Shown here in pieces: positions 6,374-57,140 of a stretch of 64,000 nt of DNA. The notes beneath the pieces were generated by a model. That model did no database searches. It was not told the DNA's origin and worked only from the letters and a program-made list of their open reading frames with translations. Both the position numbers and the translations under genes were made by a program. Each line of letters starts with the position of its first letter. Positions within the stretch are counted from its first letter, which is position 1. This stretch comes from a virus (lineage: Duplodnaviria > Caudoviricetes). Location: IMG/VR virus record IMGVR_UViG_3300035703_002708. One strand, written 5' to 3'.

Positions 6374-6392
6374 TTTTTTTTATGTTTGGGTA

Positions 6393-6422: not shown

Positions 6423-6457
6423 TCAAACAATAATTCAGAAAGTTCTTTAAAGTATAA

Positions 6458-31867: not shown

Positions 31868-31899
31868 TGAAAAAGGGACAAGAAATTGTCCCTTTTTTT
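31868..31899 (+). terminator. Intrinsic terminator after the MCP gene
   Basis: AAAAGGGACAA-GAAA-TTGTCCCTTTT. Confidence 0.85.
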
Positions 31900-31942
31900 A
31901 TTTTTTTTAGTTGTTAGGATATTTATTATAAAAGTAAACATT

Positions 31943-32326
31943 ATGGCTAATAGATTAATGACAGGAACTACTTGTGGGAACAGCTCAGTTCTCACATTCA
32001 TTGCGGATGACTTAGTAGTTACCGCCAACCCGCTGAATAGGATTTATCAATTAGAATCTGGGTTATGTATTACTTTGACTGCTACGGGAGCAACTACGTC
32101 AAATAATCCAACAAATGTAATTGTTTATGGACCGTATACTTCATGTACTCAATGTATAACACCTTTGAATTCAGGTGGTGTTGTATCAACTAATTGTAAG
32201 GATTGTGGTACAGGTACTTTCACCTCTACAACTTTCAATCAGGCAATCTATACAAATGGACAAAATAGAGCAATTAAACAAAATAATTCTGTTGCTTTAG
32301 GCGGGTTTAACGGTCTAAATAATTAA
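31943..32326 (+). CDS. Thr/Gly/Cys-rich late protein (possible capsid accessory)
   Basis: ATG 31943 after TATTTAT at 31920; CTQC and CKDC motifs. Confidence 0.65.
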   Translation: MANRLMTGTTCGNSSVLTFIADDLVVTANPLNRIYQLESGLCITLTATGATTSNNPTNVIVYGPYTSCTQCITPLNSGGVVSTNCKDCGTGTFTSTTFNQAIYTNGQNRAIKQNNSVALGGFNGLNN

Positions 32327-33443: not shown

Positions 33444-34157
33444 TTATTTGAAGTTACCTACAATATAGATAGGTGGTTCAGGTGTTCCGATTAAAGATTT
33501 TGCAAACGAAGGTACCGATTTGAATTTATAACTAGTGTCGGAGGACTCCAATTTAATGTCAACAGAGCTCCCACCATCAAAAAGTAAACCTGTTTTAATA
33601 CCTAAAGTAATACCAAACTCTGAAATTGTTCTCATAGATACTAAAGATAGATTATCAGAGTGTATAATTAATAAATCTCCATCTTGATTTTTACCAATTA
33701 AAGTTCTACAAGCTTCACCCTTATTGATTTTAGTGTCCGTAATATTAGCATTTACCTCACCATTTCTAATACCTACGTACTTTGTTTGACAAACAAATTT
33801 GGCGTTAGAGGGCCTCTTCAAACTAATTTTTGGTTCTCCACCGTCAGAATAGAAATAACCACCATATTTTATTTTTTGGTTAACTTTTTTGCCATCGATA
33901 GTTACCTCACCGATTTCATCACCTTTTGGTGTAAAAAAGTTGGCGTTCATAAAAAAATCATTATTTACATCACCTCTTTTTTTTACAGAAAAATCCATAG
34001 AATTTTTTCTGATTTTGATAACAACAAAACGTTTACCCCCAAAACTTTGGGATACCAGGTCAACCTTTTCGCTTTCCGTATCTATGAGTAGATTCGGGAA
34101 TGCGAATTTATAAACCAAACCGAAGATGAGTACGAGTACTATTAATATCTTTTTCAT
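33444..34157 (-). CDS. Phosphodiester-glycosidase (NAGPA-like) family protein with an N-terminal membrane anchor
   Basis: MNANFF, RTLIG and LFDGGSS; promoter TTG-N19-TACCTTTG-N4-ATG (34162-34191, minus strand). Confidence 0.7.
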   Translation of the reverse strand: MKKILIVLVLIFGLVYKFAFPNLLIDTESEKVDLVSQSFGGKRFVVIKIRKNSMDFSVKKRGDVNNDFFMNANFFTPKGDEIGEVTIDGKKVNQKIKYGGYFYSDGGEPKISLKRPSNAKFVCQTKYVGIRNGEVNANITDTKINKGEACRTLIGKNQDGDLLIIHSDNLSLVSMRTISEFGITLGIKTGLLFDGGSSVDIKLESSDTSYKFKSVPSFAKSLIGTPEPPIYIVGNFK

Positions 34158-34234
34158 ATGTCAAAGGTACAAAAAGAAAATTGGTAACCAAATTTTTTTT
34201 CAGATAAAGTATATTTATATGTATATAATTTTTT

Positions 34235-35401
34235 ATGAAAAATCAAATTACAGACACTGAGAGAAATACAATTTTAGAAATGCACATATCCAAAGGTTAT
34301 AAAACTTTAAATGTGGATGAAATTGTTAAGACATCTTTAATGGAACAATATACAGAATCTAATATAACCGCAGTACAGAATGCTCTGATAAAGGCCGGTG
34401 AAAATGTCGGACCTACAGGTGCTGACGGTGATTATGGTACAAATACAAAAAACGCAGTTAAAAGTTTCCAAAGAAAAAACGGATTAGAGGATGATGGCGT
34501 CGTAGGTCCCTGTACTGCTAAAGCATTAGGGGTAAAATCCTTACAAGGTGGTAATGTTTGCACCGATAGTAGTGTTAAACAAAAAGTTGTACCTGACTCT
34601 AGTAAAAATAAAACCAAAATAACACCTGATTCTTCTAAGTTGAAAACTGGTCAGGGTTTGACTGATAGAAAAAAATATGATTGTATTGCGATAACCAAAG
34701 ACCAATGTAGTAGTTTGACAAAACGAGGTGGAAATATTGGAACAGGAGGTAAAGACGAGGGTTGTGCTAAATATATGAGAGTTTGTTTACAACAATTGGA
34801 CGGTAAACTTGTTGGTGGTGATGCATGGAAGCTACTTCCAATACTTAAAGGACAGGGAGGAACAGAACTTTATAATATGTTCACTCAAGATATAGATTTT
34901 AATAAATTATCCAATCAATTTAAAGGTAAAAACGTAACAAACCTTTGTGCTATACATACAAAGGGTGGTGAAGGTCATGACAAAGAGGATTCTACATTTA
35001 AAACAATTGTTAAAAACAATTATCCGAATAAAACAAACATGTCAATAAGTAATTTGAAGTTGGGTGATATTGTAGGTTTATATTGGAGGGACTCAGGTAA
35101 CTTTGGAAAGGCTTTTTGTTCAAGAGGATTGAAAGATGGTAAGATAAAAAATGAACCATTTTCATTTAACACACACGTAGGTTTCGTAGGAGCGATAAAG
35201 GACGGAATGCCGCTTATTTTCCACAGTGTTCACTCGAAAAGATTAGCAACACCTGCAAGTGATTTGATGAATAAAAATCAACAGGGTATGATAACTTGGG
35301 TTGTTAGAGACCCTGAGATATATGCATCGGCTAATAGTAGTAAAAATAAACCTGAGGAAGAAAATTCTTGGTGGTCAGACCTTTTCAACAAACAAATTTA
35401 A
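34235..35401 (+). CDS. Peptidoglycan-binding domain + putative papain-like (CHAP/NlpC-type) amidase
   Basis: VQNAL..AG...GADGDYG..T..AVKSFQ...L..DGVVG; GCAKY...GDAW...LGDIVGL...THVGFV (Cys/His). Confidence 0.7.
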   Translation: MKNQITDTERNTILEMHISKGYKTLNVDEIVKTSLMEQYTESNITAVQNALIKAGENVGPTGADGDYGTNTKNAVKSFQRKNGLEDDGVVGPCTAKALGVKSLQGGNVCTDSSVKQKVVPDSSKNKTKITPDSSKLKTGQGLTDRKKYDCIAITKDQCSSLTKRGGNIGTGGKDEGCAKYMRVCLQQLDGKLVGGDAWKLLPILKGQGGTELYNMFTQDIDFNKLSNQFKGKNVTNLCAIHTKGGEGHDKEDSTFKTIVKNNYPNKTNMSISNLKLGDIVGLYWRDSGNFGKAFCSRGLKDGKIKNEPFSFNTHVGFVGAIKDGMPLIFHSVHSKRLATPASDLMNKNQQGMITWVVRDPEIYASANSSKNKPEEENSWWSDLFNKQI

Positions 35402-35817
35402 ATTTTCTTAAGTATATCAGTTAAAGAACAATTGATTTGTGAGTGGATTACAGTTTCGTAAGATTTCCTGCGCTTCTCAATCTCATTATTAAATAGATAA
35501 TTAACTCTTTCCCAAGTCCTTGGTTCCATCAAAATAGAATAATGGTATACGTGATTTGTCACGAATGCTTGTTGATGTTGTAATGTCAAAACAATACCCA
35601 ATCTATCGTTTATAATAATTTTCTTTTCTGATACGGGGGCATATATCAATTCCGTATCACTTTGCTTTAAAAGTTTTCTTGCGATATGAAAGCAGGTTTG
35701 TTGATACCTACTCATTGCCGCATCAATTTTCTCGTCAAGGGGTCTCCTGTGTATCCAAAGGTAATATTTAAGAAATACTCGTTTGATTTTTCTTTTAACA
35801 AATTGATAGAGTGTCAT
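35398..35817 (-). CDS. Hypothetical protein
   Basis: 139-aa ORF with an upstream TATATTTG motif on the minus strand. Confidence 0.7.
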   Translation of the reverse strand: MTLYQFVKRKIKRVFLKYYLWIHRRPLDEKIDAAMSRYQQTCFHIARKLLKQSDTELIYAPVSEKKIIINDRLGIVLTLQHQQAFVTNHVYHYSILMEPRTWERVNYLFNNEIEKRRKSYETVIHSQINCSLTDILKKI

Positions 35818-35859
35818 ACTGAAGTTTTGTGGTTACAAATATATAAAACTTTTGCGACA

Positions 35860-36348
35860 TTAACAGTACGGGGGTGAACATTTTTTCTTACCGCTAGCAT
35901 CCGGCATTTTACCTTTACAAACTTGTACTCCGTAACCGTTCGAATAAGCAGAGGGGTAAACCTTAAATTTTGCCTTAGCCGCTGCCTTACCCCTTGCACA
36001 CAATTTAGTACCTGTTTTTTTTCTACCTTCTTCCATCATACCTGTAAACGACGCATCTTCTATATCTTGCCTACCATCACCTTTAATATGATTCATCATA
36101 AAATCGAACACTTGGTCCATGTTGTTTTTGGCTTCTGCGATATGGTCTTGAGCCCAATCGTGACCATCATCTAATATTTGAGTTACCATATCTTGGTCTA
36201 ACTCTAATAACATATCACATTGTCTTCTCATTTGTTCTAAATTTGAAAAGAACATATATCTATCTGAATAATCTTCGTGTGATTCTTCTAATACTCTTTT
36301 TACTAATTTTGTAATATCTGATTCTGATAATCTAATAACTTTTTTCAT
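35860..36348 (-). CDS. Hypothetical late protein
   Basis: MKKVIRLSESDITKLVKRVLEE leader, basic Cys-rich C-terminus, and TATTTAT at 36364-36370 (-). Confidence 0.75.
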   Translation of the reverse strand: MKKVIRLSESDITKLVKRVLEESHEDYSDRYMFFSNLEQMRRQCDMLLELDQDMVTQILDDGHDWAQDHIAEAKNNMDQVFDFMMNHIKGDGRQDIEDASFTGMMEEGRKKTGTKLCARGKAAAKAKFKVYPSAYSNGYGVQVCKGKMPDASGKKKCSPPYC

Positions 36349-36382
36349 AAAATATTTTTCTAAATAAATACTTTATAAAATA

Positions 36383-36414
36383 AAAAACCCCTCTTTTGGA
36401 GGGGTTCTTTTTAA
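36383..36414. terminator. Intrinsic terminator
   Basis: AAAAAACCCCTC-TTTT-GGAGGGGTT hairpin. Confidence 0.7.
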
Positions 36415-36420
36415 GTTTTT

Positions 36421-37698
36421 TTAGTTCTTGAATAACTTGTGAGTTGTTTTACTTTGATTACTTAAAACCTCTACATAATAAACACCTTTAGGTAATTCAG
36501 AAACGTCTATTTGGTTTGTAACACCATTATATTGTTTGACTAACATACCTACGTAATTATAGATGATAACATCTTTAATTTCGTTGTTATTGATGATTAT
36601 TTTATCGTCAAATGGGTTTGGTGATAATGTGACATCACTTTCTTCATTCATCGTCACTATGTCGTCGAAATCAACTCTTTGTTGAGGTCCACAGTTTTGA
36701 AATGAGAATACTCCATCAACATCATATCCATCTGCGGTTGGACCAAATGCCGAACTACGAGACCTATCAGTAATTCTGATGTATTGGAAACAATTGACAT
36801 CACCTAATTCAATCATCGCATCCAAACAATAAACACCCAAAGTTGTCCACATAAAACCATCCATAGAAACTTCTATAAGTGCTTGTTCAGGATATTGAGG
36901 ACACTGCGGATTACCATAAGTCGTTTCAGTGATTTTAAAATCGAAACCATCGATATTAAATACTGTGTAATCAAATTTCAGAGTGATTTGACCTCCGAAT
37001 CCTAATGAAACGAAATTAACATTTTCTGTTCCTTGTGGTAAACCAAGAGCGTTTGATGGATTACTTCTTGATGAAATAACAGGAGTTCCATTTTTTCTGA
37101 GCCCTTGTGTGAAGTTTATTACGTGTTGTGCAGAACCTACACCTAATGTTGATGGAGACATTTCAGTTTCCAAAACATAACCCTCAATACCATCAACATC
37201 GTATCCGTCACATACACCAAATGGGTCAAAATTACCATAAGGGGAAACATCAACTAATTTGAAATACTGAGCCCAATTTAATTCACCTAAATCAAACTCT
37301 GAATCTTGACATCCAGTACCACAAAAATACCAATTACAGTTATCCTGTGATGCAAATAACATAATTCTTTCAGGATACCTTCTACAAGGCGGTGTTCCAA
37401 ATGTTGTTTCGTGAACTTTCAAATCCATTCCCTCAACATTTTTAACTGCAGATTCCATCATCACAACCATTTCACCTTTGAAGCCTAACGACACGTAATT
37501 AGCATTAGTGTCAGGAGTGAATAAATCTGATGATTGCGCCATTCCAATACAATTAGAACTATTGGAGCGTAATGGACTAACACTTTCTCCGTTGTTGTTT
37601 AGTCCTTGGTCAAATGACAATACCTGTCCCACCCATATCGACTGAGACAAAGATACCTGGCATAGCAATGCCATGATTAAAGTTAGTAGTGTTTTCAT
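36421..37698 (-). CDS. Secreted protein with two tandem repeat domains and a T9SS (Por) C-terminal sorting domain
   Basis: Sec signal MKTLLTLIMALLCQVSLS|Q; two ~150-aa repeats (VSLGFxG...ETTxG...YPE...DGYDVDG); C-terminus LSPNPFDD...IYNYVG.LV...IDVSELPKGVYYVEV......HKLFKN. Confidence 0.85.
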   Translation of the reverse strand: MKTLLTLIMALLCQVSLSQSIWVGQVLSFDQGLNNNGESVSPLRSNSSNCIGMAQSSDLFTPDTNANYVSLGFKGEMVVMMESAVKNVEGMDLKVHETTFGTPPCRRYPERIMLFASQDNCNWYFCGTGCQDSEFDLGELNWAQYFKLVDVSPYGNFDPFGVCDGYDVDGIEGYVLETEMSPSTLGVGSAQHVINFTQGLRKNGTPVISSRSNPSNALGLPQGTENVNFVSLGFGGQITLKFDYTVFNIDGFDFKITETTYGNPQCPQYPEQALIEVSMDGFMWTTLGVYCLDAMIELGDVNCFQYIRITDRSRSSAFGPTADGYDVDGVFSFQNCGPQQRVDFDDIVTMNEESDVTLSPNPFDDKIIINNNEIKDVIIYNYVGMLVKQYNGVTNQIDVSELPKGVYYVEVLSNQSKTTHKLFKN

Positions 37699-37762
37699 AA
37701 GTATTATTTTACTAATAAATATTAGAAAAACAACTCCTAAATATCAAATGTAAGATATTATA

Positions 37763-44081: not shown

Positions 44082-44893
44082 ACGGTTTGCGGTTCATATT
44101 TTATCTGTCTGTCAATACTGAAAAAATATTCTTTTTTTGCAGACTCAATCCAAAATTTGATTTCATCAGGAACCATAACATCTGAACCATTTTTGTAATT
44201 CCAAAAAATTGAACCTTCTCGTAGATTTACGTGCTTGTATCCAATTTTAGGAATCGTCATAATTTTGACTGAATTATGTGTCATTCTTAACATAAATTCA
44301 TAGACAAATGTCAATTTTATTGATGGTTTAAATTTACCGTATTGTTCAAATACTGATTTTTTTATCACCATACCAGACGACTGGAAGTTTTGGTAATTTT
44401 GCAAAGTTTCATTAGTTAGAATACCCATATCAGGTGAGAAGTTTGCGGCAAATGTTGCTTCATTAGTAAATCCCGCAAACACACCTTTATCGTCAATATC
44501 TACAACAATTGGTAGAAATGCTTCAACATCTTTATATGATTTAACATATAGGTTTACATTTTTAAACCAAATTGACGAGTATTCATCATCGAATTCAAAA
44601 AATGAAACCCATTCTGAAGTTGAGTTATCAACACCATAATTAATTTGTGAACAAAAATTAGGCTCGTCCTTCCAAACTAATTTTTTAACCGTAAGGTCAC
44701 CAAAGTCATATGAGTCAAGAGCACTTGTAAGTGTATCTTCATCAGTATGTACAATGATTAGTTCGTTAAATGGAATTTTTTGAGTTTTCAGAGACGTAAT
44801 TGCCTTATCAAAAAGTTCATCAAAGTCTTTAACCTTAGCAGACTTTATAGGTAATATTACAGATAAATTAAGTTTTTCGCTCATATTATTCAA
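44078..44893 (-). CDS. GT2-family glycosyltransferase
   Basis: LSVILPI, QINYGV and VSFFEFDDEY (GT-A DxD-like). Confidence 0.75.
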   Translation of the reverse strand: MNNMSEKLNLSVILPIKSAKVKDFDELFDKAITSLKTQKIPFNELIIVHTDEDTLTSALDSYDFGDLTVKKLVWKDEPNFCSQINYGVDNSTSEWVSFFEFDDEYSSIWFKNVNLYVKSYKDVEAFLPIVVDIDDKGVFAGFTNEATFAANFSPDMGILTNETLQNYQNFQSSGMVIKKSVFEQYGKFKPSIKLTFVYEFMLRMTHNSVKIMTIPKIGYKHVNLREGSIFWNYKNGSDVMVPDEIKFWIESAKKEYFFSIDRQIKYEPQTV

Positions 44894-45947
44894 TAGTTTG
44901 TAATTTGTTTAGTTGTTCTTGGAATGGTTCCAATCTTGTTTCGATGTATCTTGTAAATAAATCAATTACCTTGGATTCGAACTCATCGACTTTTGTATAT
45001 TTTTCAGCGGTTTTCTCGATGTTTTCATAAAGAGACTCATTGATATTATCTTCTAACCAATTGTGTAAGAAGTCAGATACGAAATCAACAATTTGGTTTT
45101 GTTCTCTAATCCAAACACCATTTTCTTCATTCATCCATTCAGGAAACAAATTTGGTATTTTACCAATGACTGGTACACCAACTTTCATAGATTCTAATGG
45201 GAATGTCCCAAATCCACTTGTTGAGTCAATCCAAACCGATAAAAAACAATCTTTAAGTGCGTTTGCAAATTCTTTTTGTGATAGTCCTCTCATATCTCTA
45301 AAAGTAACCCAACGATACTGAGGGTATTTTAAATAGAAAGTTTTAATCAGGGTCATTGTGTCTCTTTGGTCTCTTGTATGAATCGCAATAATTGGTTTTG
45401 GGGGTAATTCCTGTTTTTGGAAAACATTAGAAATCACAGGTGTTAAAATATCAAAAGAAGTACCTTTCATTACTGAACTTACGTATTGTTTTTGTTCCTC
45501 AGATGTGGTAATACATTTTGTAAACCCATATTGCGCCCATGTTTGACCAGGCTGTAGTGTTTCAACTATGTGGTCGTAAGCTTGACATAATACAATTTTA
45601 GCACAAGGAAGGTTTGTTAATTGCGGCATCACAAATCCATAAAGTTCTGGCACGATGATAAAATCTTCAGGGGATACCTCCAAATTCTGACCTTCAATCG
45701 CTCTATGAGGTAGTTCATCCATGTATTCTTGACCTAACCAATTCGCTACTCCTGTATAATCAGGTTTTTCATGTAGAATAATCGAATTAAATCCTGCTCG
45801 CTTCAGTGTCATGGCCATTTGGTAGGTATGTGCAATACCTGCCTTAGCATTACCTTTGGTGTCTTGTACCATAAAATAAATCCTTACAGATTTGTTTTTA
45901 AGGTTCTCTACTGATTTCTCTAAATTTTTAATTTGTTCGGGTGTCAT
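44886..45947 (-). CDS. GT-B (GT4-like) glycosyltransferase
   Basis: GFGTFPLESMKVGVPVIG donor-binding motif. Confidence 0.7.
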   Translation of the reverse strand: MTPEQIKNLEKSVENLKNKSVRIYFMVQDTKGNAKAGIAHTYQMAMTLKRAGFNSIILHEKPDYTGVANWLGQEYMDELPHRAIEGQNLEVSPEDFIIVPELYGFVMPQLTNLPCAKIVLCQAYDHIVETLQPGQTWAQYGFTKCITTSEEQKQYVSSVMKGTSFDILTPVISNVFQKQELPPKPIIAIHTRDQRDTMTLIKTFYLKYPQYRWVTFRDMRGLSQKEFANALKDCFLSVWIDSTSGFGTFPLESMKVGVPVIGKIPNLFPEWMNEENGVWIREQNQIVDFVSDFLHNWLEDNINESLYENIEKTAEKYTKVDEFESKVIDLFTRYIETRLEPFQEQLNKLQTIE

Positions 45948-45948
45948 A

Positions 45949-46212
45949 TTAATATTTGTTGATTAATTTTTTATTCAATAGTGAGTTAAAAGCAATTTTG
46001 AATGGAATGGTCAATCCTCCGCCACTCTTTAATCCTAATGTTTCGTCTATTTCTTCATCTTCAGTCATAATAACTTCCATCATCATTTTTACAACTTCGT
46101 ATTTTACAACATTAATGTGCATTTCACTACCACCACTTGCCGAAGGGATATTTATATATTTTTCAATTTCGTCGATATCAACGTAATAAGTGTCATTAAA
46201 GATTTTGAACAT
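45949..46212 (-). CDS. Hypothetical protein
   Basis: 87-aa ORF coupled to its neighbours. Confidence 0.7.
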   Translation of the reverse strand: MFKIFNDTYYVDIDEIEKYINIPSASGGSEMHINVVKYEVVKMMMEVIMTEDEEIDETLGLKSGGGLTIPFKIAFNSLLNKKLINKY

Positions 46213-46877
46213 TATGCGTATTGTTTTATAATGTTTTCCAACATAGTTTCAAATTCCTTTATTGAAGAAATTGTGTATGGTGAAGAAACGTGTTTATTGT
46301 ATTTTGTTTCGTATTTAACCACGATTTTGTTCTGTGGATGATTTAATAATAAGTCAGGATTTGCCGTAAGTAAAACATCTACTTCATCCCACATAGATTT
46401 AATTGTTTGGTTAGAATAAAATTTTACCTTTTCTAATAAACAACCAAATTTCGATATGAAAAAAAGTGATGCGGGTTTTGACTTTCCAATCTCATCTGAC
46501 ACAATCAACAAATCATGTTCATCTCTTAATTTTATATATAAATCATTAAGGTCATTAAATGATGTCATTTCGGCTGATGGGGCGTGACCAAAAATTTGCA
46601 TCGGAAATTCTTGGTACATAAAATTATAAAGTTCATCGTTGTTTGGAAATGCAAAATGTTTTGACAAGTCTATTGAATCGACTTCGGACAAGACCTCGTA
46701 TTTAAATGGAGTTTCTACTTTAGATAAAATCTCTTTATATTCCTCGTTATTATCAATCGCTTCGTAGGTCTTGAGTTTTTCGTCGTATTCCTCGTCGATT
46801 AGATATCTCTCGTAAGTTTGTTTAAACTTCTCGATGGTGTCTCTTAAAACACCATTTAATTCAATACCGATTTTCAT
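46212..46877 (-). CDS. 5'(3')-deoxyribonucleotidase-like HAD-fold protein with a non-canonical motif I
   Basis: MKIGIELNGVLRD in place of IxxDxDGVL. Confidence 0.55.
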   Translation of the reverse strand: MKIGIELNGVLRDTIEKFKQTYERYLIDEEYDEKLKTYEAIDNNEEYKEILSKVETPFKYEVLSEVDSIDLSKHFAFPNNDELYNFMYQEFPMQIFGHAPSAEMTSFNDLNDLYIKLRDEHDLLIVSDEIGKSKPASLFFISKFGCLLEKVKFYSNQTIKSMWDEVDVLLTANPDLLLNHPQNKIVVKYETKYNKHVSSPYTISSIKEFETMLENIIKQYA

Positions 46878-47602
46878 TCTTCGTATCTTTTTAGTAATTT
46901 ACTAATTAATGGATTTCTCACAACATCTTTGTCTGAAAATTCGAATACTCCGACATCGTCAATACTTTTGAATCGTTGAAGTGCGTCCCACAATCCTGAT
47001 TGACGTTTATCTTTGTATCTGTCAGTTTGTTCCAAATCCCCTGATATAAAAAATTTAGAGTTATAACCAATCCTTGTCAATAATAATTTCATTTGATTTG
47101 GTGTTGCGTTTTGTGCCTCCTCAAAAATCAAAATGGTGTTATCGATATTCATACCTCTCATATACGCTAAAGCGAATACTTCGATGATTTCCGCTTCTTT
47201 GAGTTTTTCTCTTGCCTCTTTACCAACAATTTTATTTAGTAGGTAATAAGAAGGGAAAATATAAGGGTCTAATTTTTCCTCTACGTTTCCTGGTAATGAA
47301 CCTAATTTTTCTTCAGCCTCAACTGCAGGACGAACAATTACTAACTTTTCGTATGAATTGGTGGGGTCCAAAAGTAAATCAACCGCTGCCTTCATCGAAA
47401 TATAACTTTTACCGACACCAGCAGGACCTGAACACAATACTATTTGATTATTAGTTAATAATTCATAGTAAGTCTTTTGACTTTCGGTAAGAAATTTATT
47501 TCTGATTTTTTTTGTCACTAAAGAATTGATATAATCTTTTTTTGACATTTTTCTTTCGACAGGTTCAGCTTTCGGAGTATTCTGTTTTTTTCTTTGCGTC
47601 AT
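46874..47602 (-). CDS. phoH: PhoH-family ATPase
   Basis: GPAGVGKS, RPAVEA, LGSLPG, LAYMRG, EEAQN, GDLEQTD and VVRNPL. Confidence 0.92.
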   Translation of the reverse strand: MTQRKKQNTPKAEPVERKMSKKDYINSLVTKKIRNKFLTESQKTYYELLTNNQIVLCSGPAGVGKSYISMKAAVDLLLDPTNSYEKLVIVRPAVEAEEKLGSLPGNVEEKLDPYIFPSYYLLNKIVGKEAREKLKEAEIIEVFALAYMRGMNIDNTILIFEEAQNATPNQMKLLLTRIGYNSKFFISGDLEQTDRYKDKRQSGLWDALQRFKSIDDVGVFEFSDKDVVRNPLISKLLKRYEE

Positions 47603-48632
47603 TTTTATTTACATTATTGTTAATCCATTGATAAGTTTTTTCTAATCCATAAATCAATGGTTGTGAGACCGACCAACCTATTTTTTCTTTATAAAGTTTG
47701 TTATCAGAATTTCTACCTTTAACACCAACAGGGCATTTAAATCCATATTTTTGTTTGAAGTCTTCACCTGATATATTATATATTTTAATGTTTTTTCTTG
47801 AAATATCAATGGCCATTTGAGCCAGTTGGTTTATAGTAACCATTTCCTCAGAACCGATATTTACAGGTCCTTTGAAATCACTATCCATTAATCTTAATAC
47901 CGCCTCAACACACTCGTCGATGTATAAAAATGACCTAGTTTGTTGACCATCTCCCCAAACTTCAATCTCACTACCTTCAGGTGTTTCAGAAACTTTTCTA
48001 CACATAGCAGCGGGAGCTTTTTCCTTACCTCCATTCCAAGTACCGTAAGGTCCAAAAATGTTATGGAATCTTGCGACTCTAACATCTAAACCATAGTTTC
48101 TATTAAAAGCAAAATACAATCTTTCACTGAAAAGTTTTTCCCAACCATACTCTGAATCGGGATTTGCCGGGTAAGCGGACGATTCTTCACAATTTGGGTT
48201 ATTAGGGTCTAGTTGATTATGTTCGGGATACATACAAGCCGAAGATGAGTAAAATATTTTTTTAACATTCATCATCGTTGCGTAGTACGAAACATTCAAA
48301 TTAATTAATGCCGAATTGTGCATTACATCGGCATCATTTTCTCCTGTGAAAATATATCCCGCACCTCCCATATCGGCAGCCAATTGATAGACCTCGTCAA
48401 AACTATTTTCTTTATCGTCTAACGACTTTTGATTCGGACCGAACATTATTTTACTTACAAGTTGTGCGTCTCTCAAATCTCCTTGTATAAATTCAGTACA
48501 AAATTCGTGTTGGTCGAAATATTCATGTTGTTTTATGTCTACAACTCTTACGAAATTACCTTCAGTAAATAATCTTTTCGCGAGATGACCACCTATGAAT
48601 CCGCCACCTCCTAATATTAATATATTTTTCAT
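47565..48632 (-). CDS. NAD-dependent epimerase, GDP-mannose 3,5-epimerase-like
   Basis: GGGGFIGGHL, QLAADMGGAGYI, YSSSACMYP, YGWEK and GREK-like GKEKAPAAMCRK. Confidence 0.8.
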   Translation of the reverse strand: MKNILILGGGGFIGGHLAKRLFTEGNFVRVVDIKQHEYFDQHEFCTEFIQGDLRDAQLVSKIMFGPNQKSLDDKENSFDEVYQLAADMGGAGYIFTGENDADVMHNSALINLNVSYYATMMNVKKIFYSSSACMYPEHNQLDPNNPNCEESSAYPANPDSEYGWEKLFSERLYFAFNRNYGLDVRVARFHNIFGPYGTWNGGKEKAPAAMCRKVSETPEGSEIEVWGDGQQTRSFLYIDECVEAVLRLMDSDFKGPVNIGSEEMVTINQLAQMAIDISRKNIKIYNISGEDFKQKYGFKCPVGVKGRNSDNKLYKEKIGWSVSQPLIYGLEKTYQWINNNVNKNDAKKKTEYSES

Positions 48633-49516
48633 TTTTTAAAAAAGTTTTTTATAAATTTTTCTAAATCTCCTGTTGGTCTCCAATTAGACATGGATTTTAA
48701 CTTTTCAGAATTGGATAAAGTTTTTTTAGGCTCTACGACACTTCCTATATATTCAACTTCAGAATCAATTAAATTGCATATCTCATTTATTTTGTAATCG
48801 TTACCGTTACCGACGTTGAATATTTCGAAATCAGATTCCAATGACAAACATTCAACATTTGCGTTTACTACATCATCTACGTGTGTAAAATCTCGAGATT
48901 GTTCGCCATCATTTGTTATTGGTATTGGATTTCCTATCAAGAAATTTTTTTTAAAAATAGACAGTGCTGTAATATATTGACCATTCAGAGGCATACTATC
49001 ACCATAGACGTTAAAATACCTAAGACAAAAAGTTTTAATGTTATATAAATCCGAATAAATTTTACAATATTGTTCACCAATAAGTTTTTGTAACCCGTAT
49101 GGTGATTTGGGATTTAAATTTTTTGAAGTCTCGACAAAAGGTAGTTCGTCATCACCGTAAACAGATGAAGACGAGCTAAAAATAAACCTTTCAACACCAT
49201 ATTTTCTACACATATCGAGTAGATTAACAGTACCTGTTACATTCACTTCGTTGAATTTTACAGGGTCTTTAATTGATGGTTGTACTCTAGCTAAAGCCGC
49301 TAAGTGAAATACACAATCAACTTTGCCAATCTGTTCAAAAATTTTTGTCAATTCATCATAATTAACGATATCTGTTTCGAACAAAACATCGCCAAAATTA
49401 GGTTGTGAACTATTTGATAGATTATCTATCACATAAACAAAATGACCTAATGATTTTAATTTTTTTACTAAATTGTGACCAATAAATCCACATCCACCTG
49501 TTACTAATATCTTCAT
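48629..49516 (-). CDS. NAD-dependent nucleotide-sugar epimerase/dehydratase (UDP-hexose 4-epimerase-like)
   Basis: TGGCGFIG, HLAA, SSSSVYG, YGLQK and RYFNVYG. Confidence 0.85.
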   Translation of the reverse strand: MKILVTGGCGFIGHNLVKKLKSLGHFVYVIDNLSNSSQPNFGDVLFETDIVNYDELTKIFEQIGKVDCVFHLAALARVQPSIKDPVKFNEVNVTGTVNLLDMCRKYGVERFIFSSSSSVYGDDELPFVETSKNLNPKSPYGLQKLIGEQYCKIYSDLYNIKTFCLRYFNVYGDSMPLNGQYITALSIFKKNFLIGNPIPITNDGEQSRDFTHVDDVVNANVECLSLESDFEIFNVGNGNDYKINEICNLIDSEVEYIGSVVEPKKTLSNSEKLKSMSNWRPTGDLEKFIKNFFKK

Positions 49517-49520
49517 ATTT

Positions 49521-50213
49521 TTAATTATAAATCATTTTTTGTAAAATTCCGCAGTTGTATTCGATTAAGTCATTAGACGAATCAACTTTTTTAAGATTGT
49601 ATTTTATGGCAATATTTGTTAATATACTTTGGTCGTGTCTATGTTCTATAAAATTTTTATGATTTGGGTGACCACAAATGTTCGGGAGGTCTGTGACTAT
49701 GTTTTCATTTCTACAATAATCCAACCATTCCTCAATTAACTTTAGATTTGATACCGTTTTCCTAAATCCTAAAACCCCCGCTTCTAATTGTACCTGATTA
49801 TGGAAATTTTCAGAGTCGCAATTCATTAAAACGAAACAATCTTTTTTTGTCCAAACATCGTGTGATTCATGTCTCAAATTATTGAATAATAAATAATCGT
49901 TGTTTTCGAAGTGATTCTCAATGAATGAGAAAAATCTATCTTTTGGTAGGTCAGTAGAATCCAAATAAATAACTATATCGTTTTCATTTGACTCTAACAA
50001 TGATTTTAAAATTAAATAAGGTTTCCATAACCAATAACCATATCCTCTTCCATATTTGAATATTTTATGGTTTTCAGTTAAGAACTCATTTGATATGTCT
50101 TCCTTATTATAGATTTCGATATTTTTTATGCCTGAGTTACTTAAGATTTCGACCAAATGTGTTCTTGGTTTAACATAATTGTCTGTGGCAAAAGTTATAA
50201 ATTTAAAATTCAT
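49521..50213 (-). CDS. Putative glycosyltransferase-like protein
   Basis: GYWLWKPYLI, VIYLDS and HRHDQSIL pattern in glycan-cluster context. Confidence 0.5.
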   Translation of the reverse strand: MNFKFITFATDNYVKPRTHLVEILSNSGIKNIEIYNKEDISNEFLTENHKIFKYGRGYGYWLWKPYLILKSLLESNENDIVIYLDSTDLPKDRFFSFIENHFENNDYLLFNNLRHESHDVWTKKDCFVLMNCDSENFHNQVQLEAGVLGFRKTVSNLKLIEEWLDYCRNENIVTDLPNICGHPNHKNFIEHRHDQSILTNIAIKYNLKKVDSSNDLIEYNCGILQKMIYN

Positions 50214-50220
50214 AGTTTCA

Positions 50221-50931
50221 TTAACTTCTTAAGAAATTTATTCCACCGTGTTCTGTTTTCCCCAACTGAAATATTTTTTTTTGGTATGGTAGGTCGAATG
50301 ATGGGGGGTAAACATATCCAGAATCTAATTTTTTCGGTGGATTTTTTATAAAATATTTGTTCATGTGGGATTCATCATGCCATATCGCAATAATGTTGTT
50401 GTCTAAATCTTTTTGTATTTCATTCTGTAGAGTCTCCGTCATTTCTAAAAAACTTTCGTTTTTCCCTCCAAAAAAGCATCCTTGGAAATAGTTTTCTCCT
50501 TCTTCTCCATACCCTACGTATGCTGTCGAATCTGGTCTTCTTTCGAGAGGAAATGCCTGACTTTTTATTATGTTATGAAATCCAGGATGAATCGCTCCAA
50601 CTAATCCTGATTTTTCATCAAATGGAAGTATTTCTTTTCCAATATTTTCTAAAAAAAACATATTTACATTACTGAAAAAAATAAAATCATGGTCAAGTTT
50701 ATCTTTAATCGAGTTTATTAAATGAAATCTCATTAAAGTATCAAATGGCCACCCCATTTTTTTCTGATATATTACGTTCACGTTTTTTCTTGGTCTCAAA
50801 TTGTTCGAATCAGTGAAAATAAAAAATTCCAATTGTTCATCACAAAAAAAATGTTTGATACAACTGGATATTAGTCCATCCACAAATAATTCGTATTTAC
50901 CAGTGGCAATAAAAATATAACAAATTTTCAT
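50221..50931 (-). CDS. GT6-family (ABO-like alpha-1,3-Gal/GalNAc) glycosyltransferase
   Basis: IATGKY, YFQGCFFGG and IWHDESHMNKYF; NxN (SNVN) instead of DxD, as in bacterial GT6. Confidence 0.85.
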   Translation of the reverse strand: MKICYIFIATGKYELFVDGLISSCIKHFFCDEQLEFFIFTDSNNLRPRKNVNVIYQKKMGWPFDTLMRFHLINSIKDKLDHDFIFFSNVNMFFLENIGKEILPFDEKSGLVGAIHPGFHNIIKSQAFPLERRPDSTAYVGYGEEGENYFQGCFFGGKNESFLEMTETLQNEIQKDLDNNIIAIWHDESHMNKYFIKNPPKKLDSGYVYPPSFDLPYQKKIFQLGKTEHGGINFLRS

Positions 50932-50934
50932 ATA

Positions 50935-51531
50935 TTAATTTCTATAAAAAACAACATCATAATTCTCGAAAGAGTGTAAATTTTTTGAGGTACATTCGAA
51001 TCCTAATTTTTTCATCCTTTCTTTAATCAAATTGGTTTCTCTTTTCAATGATGAATCTAAAAATTCATGAAACTCGACGGTAATTTGCCCAATTTTATCA
51101 AAAACAAAATCTGGTGTGTTACTTAACAAATCATATTCTGCCCCTTCAATATCTATTTTGATTATATCCACAAAATCCAAATTATTTTCATAAAAAATTT
51201 CCTCTAATGTTATTGACTTGATTACGTGAGTCACATGTGTGAATTTATTAAACATCACAGAACCATTGTATGGTGAATTGGGGTCTTCATAGAAGTTATA
51301 ATCCATATTTGGTTTACTGGATATTACTCTGTTATAGATTTTGAGTTTGTCTGAATGGGGTAAAGATTTGAAATTTTCGGGACCGGCTTCAACCATAATA
51401 ATTTTATCCACATTATACATTTCATTTAAGTTTAACGAAAACTCACCTTTACAAGCTCCTAAATCAATAATATTTATTTTTTTTCTGAATAAATCATCAA
51501 AAAAAGTGTGTTCCATTATTCTTCTTTCCAT
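50935..51531 (-). CDS. FkbM-family methyltransferase
   Basis: IIDLGACKG, IIKIDIEGAEY and QITVEFH. Confidence 0.85.
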   Translation of the reverse strand: MERRIMEHTFFDDLFRKKINIIDLGACKGEFSLNLNEMYNVDKIIMVEAGPENFKSLPHSDKLKIYNRVISSKPNMDYNFYEDPNSPYNGSVMFNKFTHVTHVIKSITLEEIFYENNLDFVDIIKIDIEGAEYDLLSNTPDFVFDKIGQITVEFHEFLDSSLKRETNLIKERMKKLGFECTSKNLHSFENYDVVFYRN

Positions 51532-52151
51532 CAGTATAAATTTTTTGGATTATTTGTTTTATGAATATCACTCATTTGTGTACTGAAATCAGTTTTCATA
51601 AATTGATAAAATTCTTCATATGTCATAAATTCTTTATCCTCAGTTTTTTTAAGGACACACCAATTTAAGTTACCGTTACTATCAACGTGTTGGTCAAATT
51701 CCAAAATTTGATATCCATAATCCTCCATTTTTTTAAAAAAATCATAATCAGTATAATACCTACAATGATTCTTCCAACTTCCGTACTCAGGTATTTCATG
51801 AATCATAATACCATCCACCATTAACCAGTTGTGTATGTTATTCCAACAATTGTACTGCCCTTCTTCATACTCTACATGTTCTGAAGTTCCGAAATTAGTT
51901 ATGATATCCGCATAGAATTTTTTCGGTTGATAGATTGATAAATCACATAATGTGACCTCTGGATGATTGTGTAAGTCGATACTTAAATATTGTTTGAATC
52001 TATTTTTAAAGAAATTTCTTACGAGTTGTTGGTTATATTCCCCGCCAGAAAAGTTTTGTATCCCTAATTCGAGCAGTGTTTTATTATTTAAATTTTCTAA
52101 TCCTGAAAAAATTTTGTTCAATGAATCTAGTGCTATCGTTGTTACTCCCAT
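51531..52151 (-). CDS. Class I SAM methyltransferase-like protein
   Basis: LLELG, TNFGTSEHV and DGIMIHEIP. Confidence 0.6.
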   Translation of the reverse strand: MGVTTIALDSLNKIFSGLENLNNKTLLELGIQNFSGGEYNQQLVRNFFKNRFKQYLSIDLHNHPEVTLCDLSIYQPKKFYADIITNFGTSEHVEYEEGQYNCWNNIHNWLMVDGIMIHEIPEYGSWKNHCRYYTDYDFFKKMEDYGYQILEFDQHVDSNGNLNWCVLKKTEDKEFMTYEEFYQFMKTDFSTQMSDIHKTNNPKNLY

Positions 52152-52161
52152 TTTTAAAATT

Positions 52162-52938
52162 TTAAATTAACCACCCACCAATTGATTTAAGTGAGTTTAT
52201 TTTAGTTTCTTTTCCCACCATATAATTTGCGTGAACCACCATTTTGTTTTCTTTTAGATTCCACCCGGCAAAAAAAGTATCGTATCCATTTTGGAATTCT
52301 TCAGGGTCATAAACCTCTAAATTAGCGTGAGGGTATTCTTTTATGTTATTACAAACAGAGTTAAGATAATGAAAAAGTACCTCTTGGTCGTTTTGTCGGT
52401 CATTAAGTCTGCTTTTAACTTCATTCAATAAGTAAAAAGACTTATCGTTCTTTTTAACCGAAAAATTACCAGCACATACGTAATTACTGTGTATTGGAAA
52501 GTCCCAACCATTGTTTCTTCTTGTTCTCGGTGAGTCTTGTTGAAAGACAAAATCAAAGTCTTTTAATTTTTCTTTCATAATTGTGCTTGGGTCTTTAAAG
52601 AAAAAAACATCTCCGTCAAAGTAATGCACAATATCATACACCTCTAGATTTTTAATAATTACTTCTATTTTTTTATTCATTATTTTTATAAAACCTGGAG
52701 TGTTAAACGTCTCATAATTAGATACGTCAATATAATCTCTGTATAAAAAAACCCTCTCAACGTTAAAGTTATTTTTGTTCTCCAATAAAAAAGTTTCAAG
52801 ATTGGAAAATGCTTGGCTGTCAAGAGCGGTAACTCTTAAAATATTATTACCGTCATCCAAAACTTTTAAGAAGTTGATAATATTATTTTTAGTTAAATCT
52901 GTGTACCCATTATTACATATTGTTAAATAACAAATCAT
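52162..52938 (-). CDS. Nucleotide-diphospho-sugar transferase (GT77-like)
   Basis: YFDGDVFFFKDP, CAG, NDQ and HANY...K. Confidence 0.7.
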   Translation of the reverse strand: MICYLTICNNGYTDLTKNNIINFLKVLDDGNNILRVTALDSQAFSNLETFLLENKNNFNVERVFLYRDYIDVSNYETFNTPGFIKIMNKKIEVIIKNLEVYDIVHYFDGDVFFFKDPSTIMKEKLKDFDFVFQQDSPRTRRNNGWDFPIHSNYVCAGNFSVKKNDKSFYLLNEVKSRLNDRQNDQEVLFHYLNSVCNNIKEYPHANLEVYDPEEFQNGYDTFFAGWNLKENKMVVHANYMVGKETKINSLKSIGGWLI

Positions 52939-52942
52939 TTTT

Positions 52943-53716
52943 TTAATTTAAGTTTCTATTTTCGTTTATTATTGTTCCGTTTAAAATGTGACCCCACCTT
53001 TCTGCGATTATTTTTTCATTTTTTTTGTCCGCTTCTCTTATTAAGTTGTAACTTTTAGTTCTGGTGGTTCCCCATTCTGGTTTAGAATACCAATCTATCC
53101 AATATAACCCACTTACTTTACCAAGTTTTTCCCATGCTCTAAATGAAATATCATGGTCGTCATATGTTTGAGGTGAAAATATTTCATCATAAAAATCTAA
53201 TTTGACAACATCAGAGTAATTATACATAAGTGGTCCTCGATTAGCTATTTCTCTAACACCAAATTTATCTCTAGGGTAACCTAATTTGCCATCTATAATA
53301 TCGACATGGTCTATTTTGTTTTGGGAATAAACCCTATCATTATGTGCCCTAAAAGATGTTACCGCAAATACATCATCAAAAGTTATAAAAGGCTTCAACA
53401 TCCTCTTATCAAAATCAATTTCATTAATTATCATGTCGTCTTGAATTATTATTACATAATCCGATTCGACATGTTTAAGTCCAAAATTATTGGCTTTTGT
53501 TTCAAATACATCGTCAGTATATAGGTATGTTAGTTTTTTTTGAAATTTTTTCAAAATGTTTTGTGAGATATTTTCACTGTTGTCGGTGCATCCATCATAA
53601 ACAACAATTATTTCTTCTACATTGTTAGAAATGTTTTTCACAATAGATTCACAAACTCGTTCAATTAAGAACTCTTTGTTGTGAATAGTCAACAATATTG
53701 AAACATTTTTTTTCAT
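52943..53716 (-). CDS. GT2-family glycosyltransferase
   Basis: SILLTIHN, IIVVYDGCTD, NNFGL, IIQDD and DDHD. Confidence 0.8.
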   Translation of the reverse strand: MKKNVSILLTIHNKEFLIERVCESIVKNISNNVEEIIVVYDGCTDNSENISQNILKKFQKKLTYLYTDDVFETKANNFGLKHVESDYVIIIQDDMIINEIDFDKRMLKPFITFDDVFAVTSFRAHNDRVYSQNKIDHVDIIDGKLGYPRDKFGVREIANRGPLMYNYSDVVKLDFYDEIFSPQTYDDHDISFRAWEKLGKVSGLYWIDWYSKPEWGTTRTKSYNLIREADKKNEKIIAERWGHILNGTIINENRNLN

Positions 53717-54546
53717 ATGTTGATATTAGAAAATTTATTTGCAAAAAATAAAAAGGAACTTTTAGAGTTTTGTAATATGTTTGTTTTAGAAAGAATCAAC
53801 ATATCTTCGAAGGCTTCTATTACTGATTGTTTTGACCTTTTCACGTTAAAGTTGAATACTCTACCTTCATTGTCCATAGTTAAATCATTCCACCCACCGT
53901 CTTTGAATTTCTCAACGTAGGATGTTTTATCATTAACTATGGTATTTGGAAGAATTTTGAACAGACTTTCAGTTTGTTGGTCGTCGGAACACACGAAATA
54001 TTTTTGTTGTAAATTATTTTTTACATAATTAATGACAGAATTATCATCTATTCTATACATAGAATCAGTTTTTCTAAGGTGAATTCCGATGGTACTTTTA
54101 TTTATTTCATTTTTTAATACGAATGAATTTACTTTATTAATGATTGACTTTTTTATTTTTAAAAAAGAAAGTTTGGACATTGACTCACTCTCAGAGAAGA
54201 CCTCTGAAATTTTATTATGATAATAAACAATAGTTTTTCCGAATGATGCTGCCTCAGTGTAGGTTTCAGACGAATGTTTGAGTTTGATTTTTGGATTAAA
54301 ATTAGTCTGATTTTCGTGAATCAAAAAAACATCATCGATGTGTTTACTGAAAATTTCGTTTATGTTGTTCCTTATGACTGGTAAATTTACCTCAAATAAA
54401 TCATCAAAACTACAACCACACCAAGAGTTCTCCGGCCAACATACAATTGGTGAATAATTTATTAAGTCCGAAACAAGCAAACCACCGATTAATGTCCCTA
54501 AACGATTACCCAACCCCCCATCACAAAAAATTATAATATTATTCAT
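53713..54546 (-). CDS. Fucosyltransferase-like (GT11/GT23-type fold) protein
   Basis: GGLGNRL, IGIHLRKTD, FVCSDD and SSF motifs. Confidence 0.65.
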   Translation of the reverse strand: MNNIIIFCDGGLGNRLGTLIGGLLVSDLINYSPIVCWPENSWCGCSFDDLFEVNLPVIRNNINEIFSKHIDDVFLIHENQTNFNPKIKLKHSSETYTEAASFGKTIVYYHNKISEVFSESESMSKLSFLKIKKSIINKVNSFVLKNEINKSTIGIHLRKTDSMYRIDDNSVINYVKNNLQQKYFVCSDDQQTESLFKILPNTIVNDKTSYVEKFKDGGWNDLTMDNEGRVFNFNVKRSKQSVIEAFEDMLILSKTNILQNSKSSFLFFANKFSNINI

Positions 54547-54547
54547 T

Positions 54548-55120
54548 TTAGTACCAAAGTTCGTAACTAATTTTATTTTTTTCTAAATAATTTAGGATAT
54601 TTTGTTTTCTAAAATTTAGATTATGTTTTTCTATCATTGAATCAGAAATATACTGATTGTGAAATTCCACAAAGATTTTTGTAAATCTTGTCAGGATATT
54701 TTTTTCGATAAGTTTTTCAAGAATTTCGTACTCAGAACCCTCAATATCCATTTTTAAGAAAACTTCATCATTTTCACTGAACGAATTAATTAAGTCAATT
54801 AAGTCAGTCGATGTAACATTTATAAAGTTGTCCCATACCTGATTATACTTGGAGTTATGAAATTCATTATAAATCGTCGAACTAACCGAGAACTCGTCGT
54901 TTTTAGGTATGAACAGTTTTACTTCCTCATTCGAAGCGTGGACTGCTTTATTCTGAATTGTTACGTTAGTATTTAAATTGTATTTTTCAACTAGGTGATT
55001 ATAACAATTTGGGTTTGGCTCAAACATAAAAATTCTCCAAGTATCATCTATATTCAATATACTCTTCAGATGTTCGAATCCTTGTCCTAAGTTCGAACCA
55101 CAATCTATTAAATTTTTCAT
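54548..55120 (-). CDS. FkbM-family methyltransferase
   Basis: IDCGSNLG, FEPNP, LKMDIEGSEY and VEFH. Confidence 0.85.
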   Translation of the reverse strand: MKNLIDCGSNLGQGFEHLKSILNIDDTWRIFMFEPNPNCYNHLVEKYNLNTNVTIQNKAVHASNEEVKLFIPKNDEFSVSSTIYNEFHNSKYNQVWDNFINVTSTDLIDLINSFSENDEVFLKMDIEGSEYEILEKLIEKNILTRFTKIFVEFHNQYISDSMIEKHNLNFRKQNILNYLEKNKISYELWY

Positions 55121-55124
55121 AATT

Positions 55125-56459: not shown

Positions 56460-56462
56460 ATC

Positions 56463-57140
56463 TTAAACTCTAGTACTTAAACTTGTTGGTAATGTTTTTT
56501 GAAAAAAATCGTTTTTAGCTTGCGCAATTCCTGGTAAAATTTGTGGTTCATATTTTTTTAACCATAAAACATAAGGGAAACTCAATTGGTCTCTTGAGGT
56601 GTATTTACATATATGTTCCCACCAACATAACATAATTTCTCTAACCTTTTCAGTATTTTTTACAACAAATGTTGGTAATTCAAATAAACCATTGTTCTCT
56701 GGAAAACCATTCATCGAGTAATCAAACATTTGTTTATCCACCAATTCTTGATAATCATACCTGAGGTATTTTATTGCTTGGGCTTCTTGGTAAATACAGT
56801 TTCTCTCCCCATGTTTGAATACCATAATATCTTTATTCATTTTGTTTACTATTTCATGTGGGTCCATCAGAATATCGTGAGTTGAATCAATCCATATATA
56901 GTAGTCGTAGTTTGGTAAAAATAAAAACGGAAGGACTTTATATATTTTAGCATTACGCCTATCCTGAAACACAGAATCTGATGAAAAATTTAATGGTCTA
57001 TGTATCTGCCATGTATTTGATGAAATATTAGTGTCTACAAATGCATGATAATCTACATTATCATATTTGTTGATTTGTTCTTTTAAAGGACTAGACTCTC
57101 TCTTTCCTATTTTTGATGTAACTATCGCAATTTTATTCAT
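56463..57140 (-). CDS. DUF616-type putative glycosyltransferase
   Basis: YYIWIDS, FKHGERNCIYQEA and SRDQLSFPYVLW. Confidence 0.7.
   Translation of the reverse strand: MNKIAIVTSKIGKRESSPLKEQINKYDNVDYHAFVDTNISSNTWQIHRPLNFSSDSVFQDRRNAKIYKVLPFLFLPNYDYYIWIDSTHDILMDPHEIVNKMNKDIMVFKHGERNCIYQEAQAIKYLRYDYQELVDKQMFDYSMNGFPENNGLFELPTFVVKNTEKVREIMLCWWEHICKYTSRDQLSFPYVLWLKKYEPQILPGIAQAKNDFFQKTLPTSLSTRV

Follow-up and report, generated by a model that had tools for sequence, protein, structure and literature searches.

A predicted type IX secretion cargo protein as a putative accessory gene of a large freshwater Bacteroidota phage

The T9SS (type IX secretion system) builds the cell surface of Bacteroidota, with its adhesins, gliding machinery and polymer-degrading enzymes. 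Do phages of these bacteria supply cargo of their own to the same route? Here we describe P0001, a gene on the minus strand of a 64,000-nt stretch of tailed-phage DNA (Duplodnaviria; Caudoviricetes; IMG/VR record IMGVR_UViG_3300035703_002708; this whole stretch is referred to as the window). Judged by its sequence and by structural models, the phage-encoded product is built like a T9SS cargo protein of type A. We read it as cargo because of profile hidden Markov model (HMM) scores, matches in sequence and in fold to solved C-terminal sorting domains (CTDs), a model of the complex with PorV, and the linkage of the gene to the phage. A first-pass annotation, made from the letters of the window alone, had proposed phage-encoded T9SS cargo seated among virion genes. 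The cargo architecture and the phage linkage hold, but the fixed place in a virion module does not: P0001 is not a fixed part of that module, and appears instead to be an optional moron. Genuine export of the protein by the T9SS we consider likely.

The open reading frame (ORF) at 36421-37698 (-) encodes a product of 425 residues. The gene and its signals are laid out as follows.

36421..37698, minus strand: coding sequence (CDS) P0001, 425 aa, stop codon included
37645..37698, minus strand: predicted Sec-type signal peptide, aa 1-18, with n/h/c layout and predicted cleavage after S18 or S20
37174..37638, minus strand: repeat 1, about aa 21-175, discoidin/CBM32-like beta-sandwich with its DGYDVDG end at aa 164-170 (self-alignment and AlphaFold2 model)
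36694..37146, minus strand: repeat 2, about aa 185-335, discoidin/CBM32-like beta-sandwich with its DGYDVDG end at aa 323-329 (self-alignment and VIA-align)
36625..36693, minus strand: acidic linker, aa 336-358, with the invariant Cys336; low model confidence
36424..36624, minus strand: predicted T9SS type-A C-terminal sorting domain, aa 359-425 (HMMs, fold, PorV complex model)
37715..37721, minus strand: promoter-like motif TATTTAT in the context CTAATATTTATTAG, 23 nt before the start codon (positional enrichment; putative promoter role)
36382..36410, minus strand: intrinsic terminator-like hairpin, beginning 11 nt past the stop codon, with a 12-bp stem containing 5 G-C pairs, followed by a T run

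The C-terminus is matched by two models of T9SS sorting domains. Residues 360-422 score 44.4 bits against PF18962 (curated cut-off 27) and residues 359-425 score 38.3 bits against TIGR04183 (curated cut-off 23); the domain ends at the last residue of the protein. Its motifs are SPNP, IYNYVGMLV, IDVSELPKGVYYV and a terminal KLFKN. The type-B CTD (PF13585 CHU_C / TIGR04131) was not matched, with PF13585 reaching 13.3 bits against a cut-off of 27. AlphaFold2 predicts seven strands in the last 70 residues. When superimposed with VIA-align on the CTD of NucA from the Flavobacterium johnsoniae translocon (8glk_D), the domain gives a Z score of 9.1 and a root-mean-square deviation (rmsd) of 2.0 Å at 28% identity; the Z score is 8.5 for the RemZ CTD (8gl8_D) and 9.5 for 9x1i_B. 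A phmmer search of the PDB with the CTD retrieved 7pzj_A (1.7e-4), mirolase 8qb1_A (2.3e-4) and 8glk_D (5e-4). No second CTD was found in the window with an HMM made from the CTDs of the P0001 family, a narrow model.

Could this domain engage the T9SS shuttle? The CTD region was modelled in complex with mature PorV from a 4.4-Mb Bacteroidia genome that holds cellular members of the family. All three runs scored 0.85, compared to 0.00 for the best of three controls, with a contact agreement between runs of at least 82% and a partner predicted local distance difference test (pLDDT) score of at least 76. In calibration, 51 of 78 solved complexes attained the pass mark, as did 2 of 108 mismatched pairs. 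We take the pass to reflect a modelled likeness of the phage CTD to a PorV-binding CTD, not binding.

At the other end of the protein, a basic residue (K2) is followed by a hydrophobic stretch of about 11 residues and then by small residues (SLS-QS). This n/h/c layout is kept in 40/40 aligned homologues despite sequence drift, and a hydrophobic N-terminus is present in 106 of 116 family proteins. We do not regard the protein as a lipoprotein, for it lacks a valid lipobox: the residue before Cys13 is L, M, I or F in the phage clade, which places Cys13 in the hydrophobic core rather than at a signal peptidase II site. Across the 40-homologue alignment six cysteines are invariant (C105, C121, C130, C266, C291 and C336), with C105/C130 of repeat 1 aligning with C266/C291 of repeat 2. 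Such a set fits an oxidising location, be it periplasmic or extracellular. The linker is the least conserved region, and its residues 338-343 fall below a pLDDT of 50 in the AlphaFold2 model. The protein has no copy of D[ST][AILVMT], the motif for O-glycosylation in Bacteroidota.

The presumed passenger consists of two tandem repeats, which align with each other (aa 25-171 with aa 192-330) at 40% identity and E 5e-38. Both terminate in DGYDVDG, a possible Ca2+-binding motif, and the Asp residues of both motifs are invariant in the homologue alignment. From this alignment the AlphaFold2 model was built (mean pLDDT 82). With VIA-align, repeat 1 matches the muskelin discoidin domain (4pqq_A, Z 10.6) and AlyQ, a CBM32 plus lyase protein (5xnr_A, Z 9.5); repeat 2 matches 7biz_B (Z 12.5), 2jd9_A (Z 11.4) and the CBM32 structure 7d2a_A (Z 10.9). 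Foldseek agrees, returning factor VIII C domains, neuropilin b1b2 and CBM32. No Pfam family, PF00754 included, matched aa 1-358 at E values up to 0.1, and an atlas feature search with repeat 1 retrieved unnamed clusters only, the nearest of them without a Pfam family. By their modelled fold, then, both repeats are galactose-binding-domain-like (discoidin/CBM32) beta-sandwiches that are not members of PF00754, and most likely they bind a glycan or another surface ligand.

The first-pass annotation described the protein well. The ORF, the layout of a Sec-type signal, the two tandem repeats ending in DGYDVDG and the T9SS CTD motifs are all borne out, and the two analyses of the protein that it suggested gave scores above both curated HMM cut-offs and, by structure prediction, two discoidin/CBM32-like beta-sandwiches followed by a seven-strand CTD.

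The window encodes a large terminase, a portal, a T4-like major head protein and a peptidoglycan (PG)-binding, endolysin-like protein; by major capsid protein (MCP) its nearest isolate is Flavobacterium phage immuto, at 36%. Neither megablast with 12 kb nor tblastn with the P0001 protein gave a match among 50,697 GenBank phage records, and PHROGs held no match for P0001 or its four upstream neighbours. The slot of P0001 lies between a phage-specific gene of 497 aa, g37763, and a gene of 162 aa, g35860. Four independently assembled IMG/VR contigs (L008-L011) have P0001 in this same slot, at a divergence in step with that of its neighbours; comparison of these contigs places baseplate-side genes on one side of the slot and the MCP and portal genes on the other. 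Near-identical contigs from other freshwater studies span both junctions of P0001, the stretch was found in runs of 13 studies of lakes, reservoirs and similar waters, and there is no G+C break at the gene. P0001 is phage-linked, as the independent contigs across both junctions and the four contigs with the same slot confirm for the check that had been proposed. The earlier placement among virion genes is right in a loose sense: the neighbours are phage-specific, and the head genes are about 5 kb off. One neighbour, g39292, gives a baseplate-hub-like signal, which is a lead only.

Compared to L008 the window is a mosaic. P0001, g35860 and g35398 are 95-97% identical between the two, while the MCP is 77%, g37763 69% and g39292 39% identical. 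This pattern suggests that window positions 35398-37698 and L008 positions 3807-6478 form a recently exchanged recombination block.

Where does the family occur outside phages? A metagenome protein set contained 684 homologues of P0001. Among GTDB genomes there are 266 loci, all in metagenome-assembled genomes (MAGs) of Bacteroidota (Flavobacteriales, Bacteroidia, Chitinophagaceae, Cytophagaceae), at 37-49% identity. These cellular copies stand in ordinary chromosomal contexts, for instance beside gyrB, and often lie in tandem, up to five paralogues to an array, with differing numbers of domains; at L026, L033, L037 and L051, all in GTDB Bacteroidota MAGs, four or five paralogues of ~430 to ~1900 aa lie in a row. 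Family-carrying genomes encode SprA (3 of 3) and PorV (2 of 2). By sequence, P0001 appears to belong to an unannotated family of T9SS cargo with discoidin-like domains, strongly expanded in freshwater Bacteroidota.

A maximum-likelihood tree groups 19 copies, taken from contigs that are viral or phage-like and from metagenome clusters that share the 424-429-aa type, into one clade (Shimodaira-Hasegawa-like approximate likelihood ratio test, SH-aLRT, 100) apart from all 54 genome copies. Comparison with host homologs had been suggested at the outset, and this separation is its outcome. The clade is deep, has two subgroups, and includes copies on unrelated backbones that share no other gene with the window. 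One of these is the 318-kb contig L001, in which a tail-fibre gene lies 5 kb from the P0001 homologue. Another contig, L002 (group B context), was considered as a phage and is called only phage-like here, having no PHROG matches and no other gene in common with the window. A single phage clade on unrelated backbones is consistent with one old acquisition of the gene from a Bacteroidota host and later exchange from phage to phage. The ratio of nonsynonymous to synonymous substitution rates (dN/dS) of P0001 is 0.066 relative to L008 and 0.11-0.24 relative to more distant phage orthologues; for the CTD by itself it is 0.12-0.30. These values indicate purifying selection on all regions of the gene across orthologues that are 60-97% identical.

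Is P0001 a constant companion of its phage lineage? The flanking gene g37763, with at least 548 relatives in IMG/VR, served as bait for related phages, and the best 80 loci (L093-L172) were examined. P0001 was present in only 2 of these 80, both already known from the search with P0001 itself. At 17 loci nothing but a gap of 0-24 bp separates the flanking genes, and these loci include the closest relatives (g37763 89-93% identical). The remaining loci have the slot filled by 0.2-5.4 kb of a different, variable family, whose proteins range from 79 to 979 aa, carry no signal peptide and share the C-terminal pattern '...LGGxNGLN' ('...TDGYGTPVTQLNxxTLGGPNGLN'). The slot between g37763 and g35860 (window 36349-37762) is therefore hypervariable, measuring from 0 to 5.4 kb. 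The window has a '...GGxNGLN' family member of its own at 31886-32326 (+), 146 aa long and directly downstream of the major head protein gene.

Two collinear phages, L106 and L107, ~90-92% identical, differ by a deletion of 1,249 bp that removes almost exactly the CDS. The scar in L107 keeps the leader, with the motif mutated to TACTTAT, as well as the last ~seven codons and the terminator. Contigs from other studies also contain joints that skip P0001; their flanks are short and they were not used alone, the deletion being shown from IMG/VR contigs. Presence in 2 of 80 loci together with this deletion means that P0001 is dispensable, a gene that is gained, exchanged and lost. Among relatives within the lineage, three large ones (261, 195 and 194 kb) gave no match to PF18962, so T9SS cargo is not a lineage-wide trait. 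From these comparisons P0001 appears to be a moron, an accessory gene in a hypervariable slot of a large Bacteroidota phage from freshwater. An unrelated phage contig of 465 kb, G007 (IMGVR_UViG_3300023174_000033), contains four PF18962 matches within 45 kb (397792-442545; L173-L176), of which two, in open frames with 1688 and 549 aa, exceed the cut-off; a distant P0001 homologue, L012 (31-35%), is present on this contig too.

P0001 seems to be equipped for its own transcription. The motif TATTTAT is found in 15 of 63 upstream 40-nt windows, compared to 3 of 63 for its reverse complement, and with the same orientation it occupies -20 to -30 upstream of both neighbours of P0001, g35860 and g37763, as well as of the portal and PG-binding genes. 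Across the whole window it occurs 44 times with 38.6 expected, which is no enrichment. The motif before P0001 had been called late-type: its position and orientation support a promoter-like role, whereas enrichment across the window is lacking and 'late' is plausible only. As folded RNA, the terminator hairpin reaches -19.7 kcal/mol (z -3.4). With a promoter-like motif before it and a terminator behind it, P0001 looks like a self-contained unit, in which the motif would act as promoter. Upstream of 629, 9020, 34157(-) and 35817(-), TAnnTTTG takes the place of TATTTAT; this we presume to be the host-type -7 element of Bacteroidota. The two motifs suggest two promoter classes in the window, perhaps early and late.

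How might such a protein act? The product would be made in the infected cell, probably alongside the structural and lysis genes that have the same upstream motif. It would cross the inner membrane via Sec, fold and form its disulfides in the periplasm, and be passed by its type-A CTD to the PorV shuttle and SprA translocon of the host. The CTD would then be removed, leaving the two lectin-like domains released or attached to the surface. By binding a glycan or surface ligand, the discoidin/CBM32-like domains could change which molecules an infected cell exposes or sheds. For P0001 we infer actual export by the T9SS, late timing, glycan binding and biological role. With low confidence we rank masking of receptors or debris (superinfection exclusion) first among the roles, and adhesion or aggregation second. 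Two reports map phage resistance of Flavobacterium to gliding and T9SS genes (10.1101/2020.10.02.323337, PMC9804748), which implies that surface components delivered by the T9SS matter for phage adsorption. Together with the nature of the slot as a hot spot of variable genes, this favours a change of the infected cell's surface; dispensability of P0001 argues against an essential role in lysis or jamming. One specific version is that the phage-only clade is a surface-remodelling effector: a late lectin, exported through the host T9SS, that binds a host glycan or a T9SS-delivered receptor, blocks adsorption of progeny or competitors to infected cells or debris, and spreads as a cassette among unrelated large Bacteroidota phages. 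We put this version forward tentatively and think it rather unlikely as a whole; if true, it would be the first functionally defined phage effector that uses the T9SS.

Several observations weigh against export by the T9SS and the role built upon it. A T9SS in the actual host of the phage is presumed. Expression, if late, would leave little time before lysis. Our search found no RNA source of the P0001 stretch; two runs labelled 'RNA-Seq' are probably DNA and were kept as contigs. Since PorV-CTD complexes have already been solved, the PorV pass may reflect the memory of the model, and the phage CTD is shorter than in the aligned cellular homologues, at the short end of the range. No Pfam family matches the repeats, and ligand binding is predicted from their fold. 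Finally, rarity among relatives and the deletion in a sister phage mean that any benefit is conditional.

What else could P0001 be? It might be a virion component, in which the discoidin-like domains would bind a receptor or decorate the particle and the beta-sandwich at the C-terminus would be a structural Ig-like domain rather than a secretion signal. Its location between baseplate-like and head modules, the tail-fibre gene 5 kb from the homologue in the 318-kb phage L001, the discoidin-like domains of phage virion and tail proteins in BFVD, and the usual occupants of the slot, which without a signal peptide could be fibre-like, all agree with such a role. Tailed virions, however, are assembled in the cytoplasm, out of which the conserved Sec-type signal would take the protein; the six invariant cysteines point the same way, to the periplasm or beyond. 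The CTD passes T9SS-specific HMMs and resembles PorV-bound CTDs, the cellular homologues are ordinary T9SS cargo arrays, and the gene is dispensable. We therefore judge a virion role to be quite improbable. The CTD might instead stall in SprA/PorV, so as to block secretion and gliding or to leave the translocon pore open late in infection as an aid to outer-membrane lysis. A CTD shorter than in the aligned cellular homologues, an upstream motif common to structural and lysis genes, and the confident model on PorV are compatible with jamming. Yet the CTD fold has its full seven strands and normal motifs, with nothing that points to stalling, and a dispensable gene, rare in its lineage, fits a core lysis step poorly; this explanation strikes us as very unlikely.

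Two further explanations deny the gene a function for the phage. P0001 could be a host-derived passenger without benefit, hitch-hiking in a recombination hot spot and on its way to being lost, as its presence in 2 of 80 relatives, the deletion scar in a sister phage and the recent exchange suggested by the mosaic of 95-97% identity with L008 would allow. Against this stand purifying selection on every region across orthologues 60-97% identical, the deep and well supported phage-only clade with two subgroups on unrelated backbones, and the retention of a promoter-like motif and terminator of its own, so that we hold a functionless passenger to be unlikely. Or is P0001 host DNA misjoined to phage DNA during assembly, a possibility raised by the cellular homologues at 37-49% identity? 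Chimeric assembly, against which the first-pass annotation had warned, is excluded by the same slot in four independent IMG/VR contigs, with divergence matching that of the neighbours, by near-identical contigs from other studies that cover both junctions, and by the clade of all phage copies apart from genome copies. The lack of a G+C break and the 5' leader, last codons and terminator retained in L107 add to this, and the chance of a chimera is negligible. Export through the host T9SS is the reading that we prefer.

Other parts of the window and its relatives are of interest for the biology of the phage. Two genes at 33444-35401 are absent from the syntenic relatives L008-L011, in which g35398 abuts g32721; they may represent a second insertion, possibly linked to lysis. 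A long minus-strand run at 44886-61572 (-) is a phage-borne glycan-building cluster. The proteins at 15019-18436 may be virion-associated lysins. The features in question are as follows.

33444-34157, minus strand: NAGPA-like phosphodiester glycosidase with N-terminal hydrophobic anchor
34235-35401, plus strand: PG_binding_1 protein, 388 aa
47565-49516, minus strand: sugar-nucleotide epimerases/dehydratases
52162-52938 and 57133-58629, with weaker matches at 44886-45947 and 60292-61572, minus strand: glycosyltransferases
55125-56459, minus strand: asparagine-synthase-like amidotransferase
10575-12614, minus strand: FtsH-like ATP-dependent protease, 679 aa (phrog_4871, E 1e-242)
15019-18436, plus strand: two adjacent large proteins with metallo-endopeptidase (M23-like) and peptidoglycan-binding regions
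6676-6751, plus strand: tRNA-Met (CAU)

How does P0001 compare with known systems? Its CTD has the same predicted fold as those of NucA and RemZ of F. johnsoniae (8glk, 8gl8; Z 9.1 and 8.5, rmsd ~2 Å, 23-28% identity) and is matched at the sequence level as well (E 5e-4). NucA and RemZ are cellular proteins with demonstrated secretion, whereas export of the phage protein is predicted. With CBM32 and F5-F8 type C modules P0001 shares the beta-sandwich fold of both repeats (Z 10-12.5), and among its longer relatives are some that bear a genuine PF00754 domain in addition; what sets it apart is the DGYDVDG strand together with its arrangement of cysteines, both specific to its family.

T5 Llp is a receptor-masking protein. 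The envelope-targeted product of P0001 could likewise alter the cell surface, perhaps as a mask. Like phage morons as defined in 'The moron comes of age' (PMC3594210), P0001 is a unit between conserved genes that spreads by horizontal transfer, and its own transcription is predicted. Classic morons reside in prophages and are expressed from the lysogen; the phage of P0001, in contrast, is large and probably lytic, and the motif before the gene is common to structural genes.

Phage genes with a T9SS tag suggest that phages reprogramme the Bacteroidota surface from inside the cell, and P0001 offers a tractable test case: a compact, easily expressed cargo of 425 aa, with a clear sequence and fold signature of the tag, a phage-specific clade to compare with host paralogues, and sister phages from nature, one with the gene and one from which it is cleanly deleted. 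It is a practical entry point to what phages gain from use of the T9SS. As an idea, T9SS-tagged phage genes are already published and not new. Bellas et al. 2020 (PMC7468147) reported that the flexible genes of 'Cryophage' include three for T9SS type-A cargo and suggested that the host system is hijacked, de Jonge et al. 2019 (PMC6949934) reported T9SS sorting-domain proteins in crAss-like phages, and UniProt/BFVD contains proteins of 'uncultured Caudovirales phage' annotated with a T9SS sorting domain. The first-pass annotation, which knew of no characterised phage T9SS substrate, was right with respect to experiment, since in the literature searched we found no experimentally characterised one; these bioinformatic reports do exist.

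In Cryophage, as here, type-A-tagged genes lie among the variable genes of a Bacteroidota phage, and both cases were found by bioinformatics only. Its cargo consists of an endoglucanase, a GH39 protein and a PA14-domain protein, whereas the P0001 passenger has two unannotated discoidin/CBM32-like domains; for P0001 we also show that its phage copies form a clade of their own, that it has moron-like signals and that a sister phage retains the scar of its deletion. The crAss-like 'cluster 2' gut phages have sorting-domain ORFs adjoining the head/structural module, as is loosely the case in our phage, and some of their sorting domains are joined to repeats of a carbohydrate-binding type (BACON). 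They belong to another phage group, live in the gut rather than in freshwater, and carry other passengers, with no homology to P0001 outside the CTD. What the present case adds is the passenger, with its two unannotated discoidin-like domains, along with the phage-only clade, a deletion scar and the anatomy of a moron.

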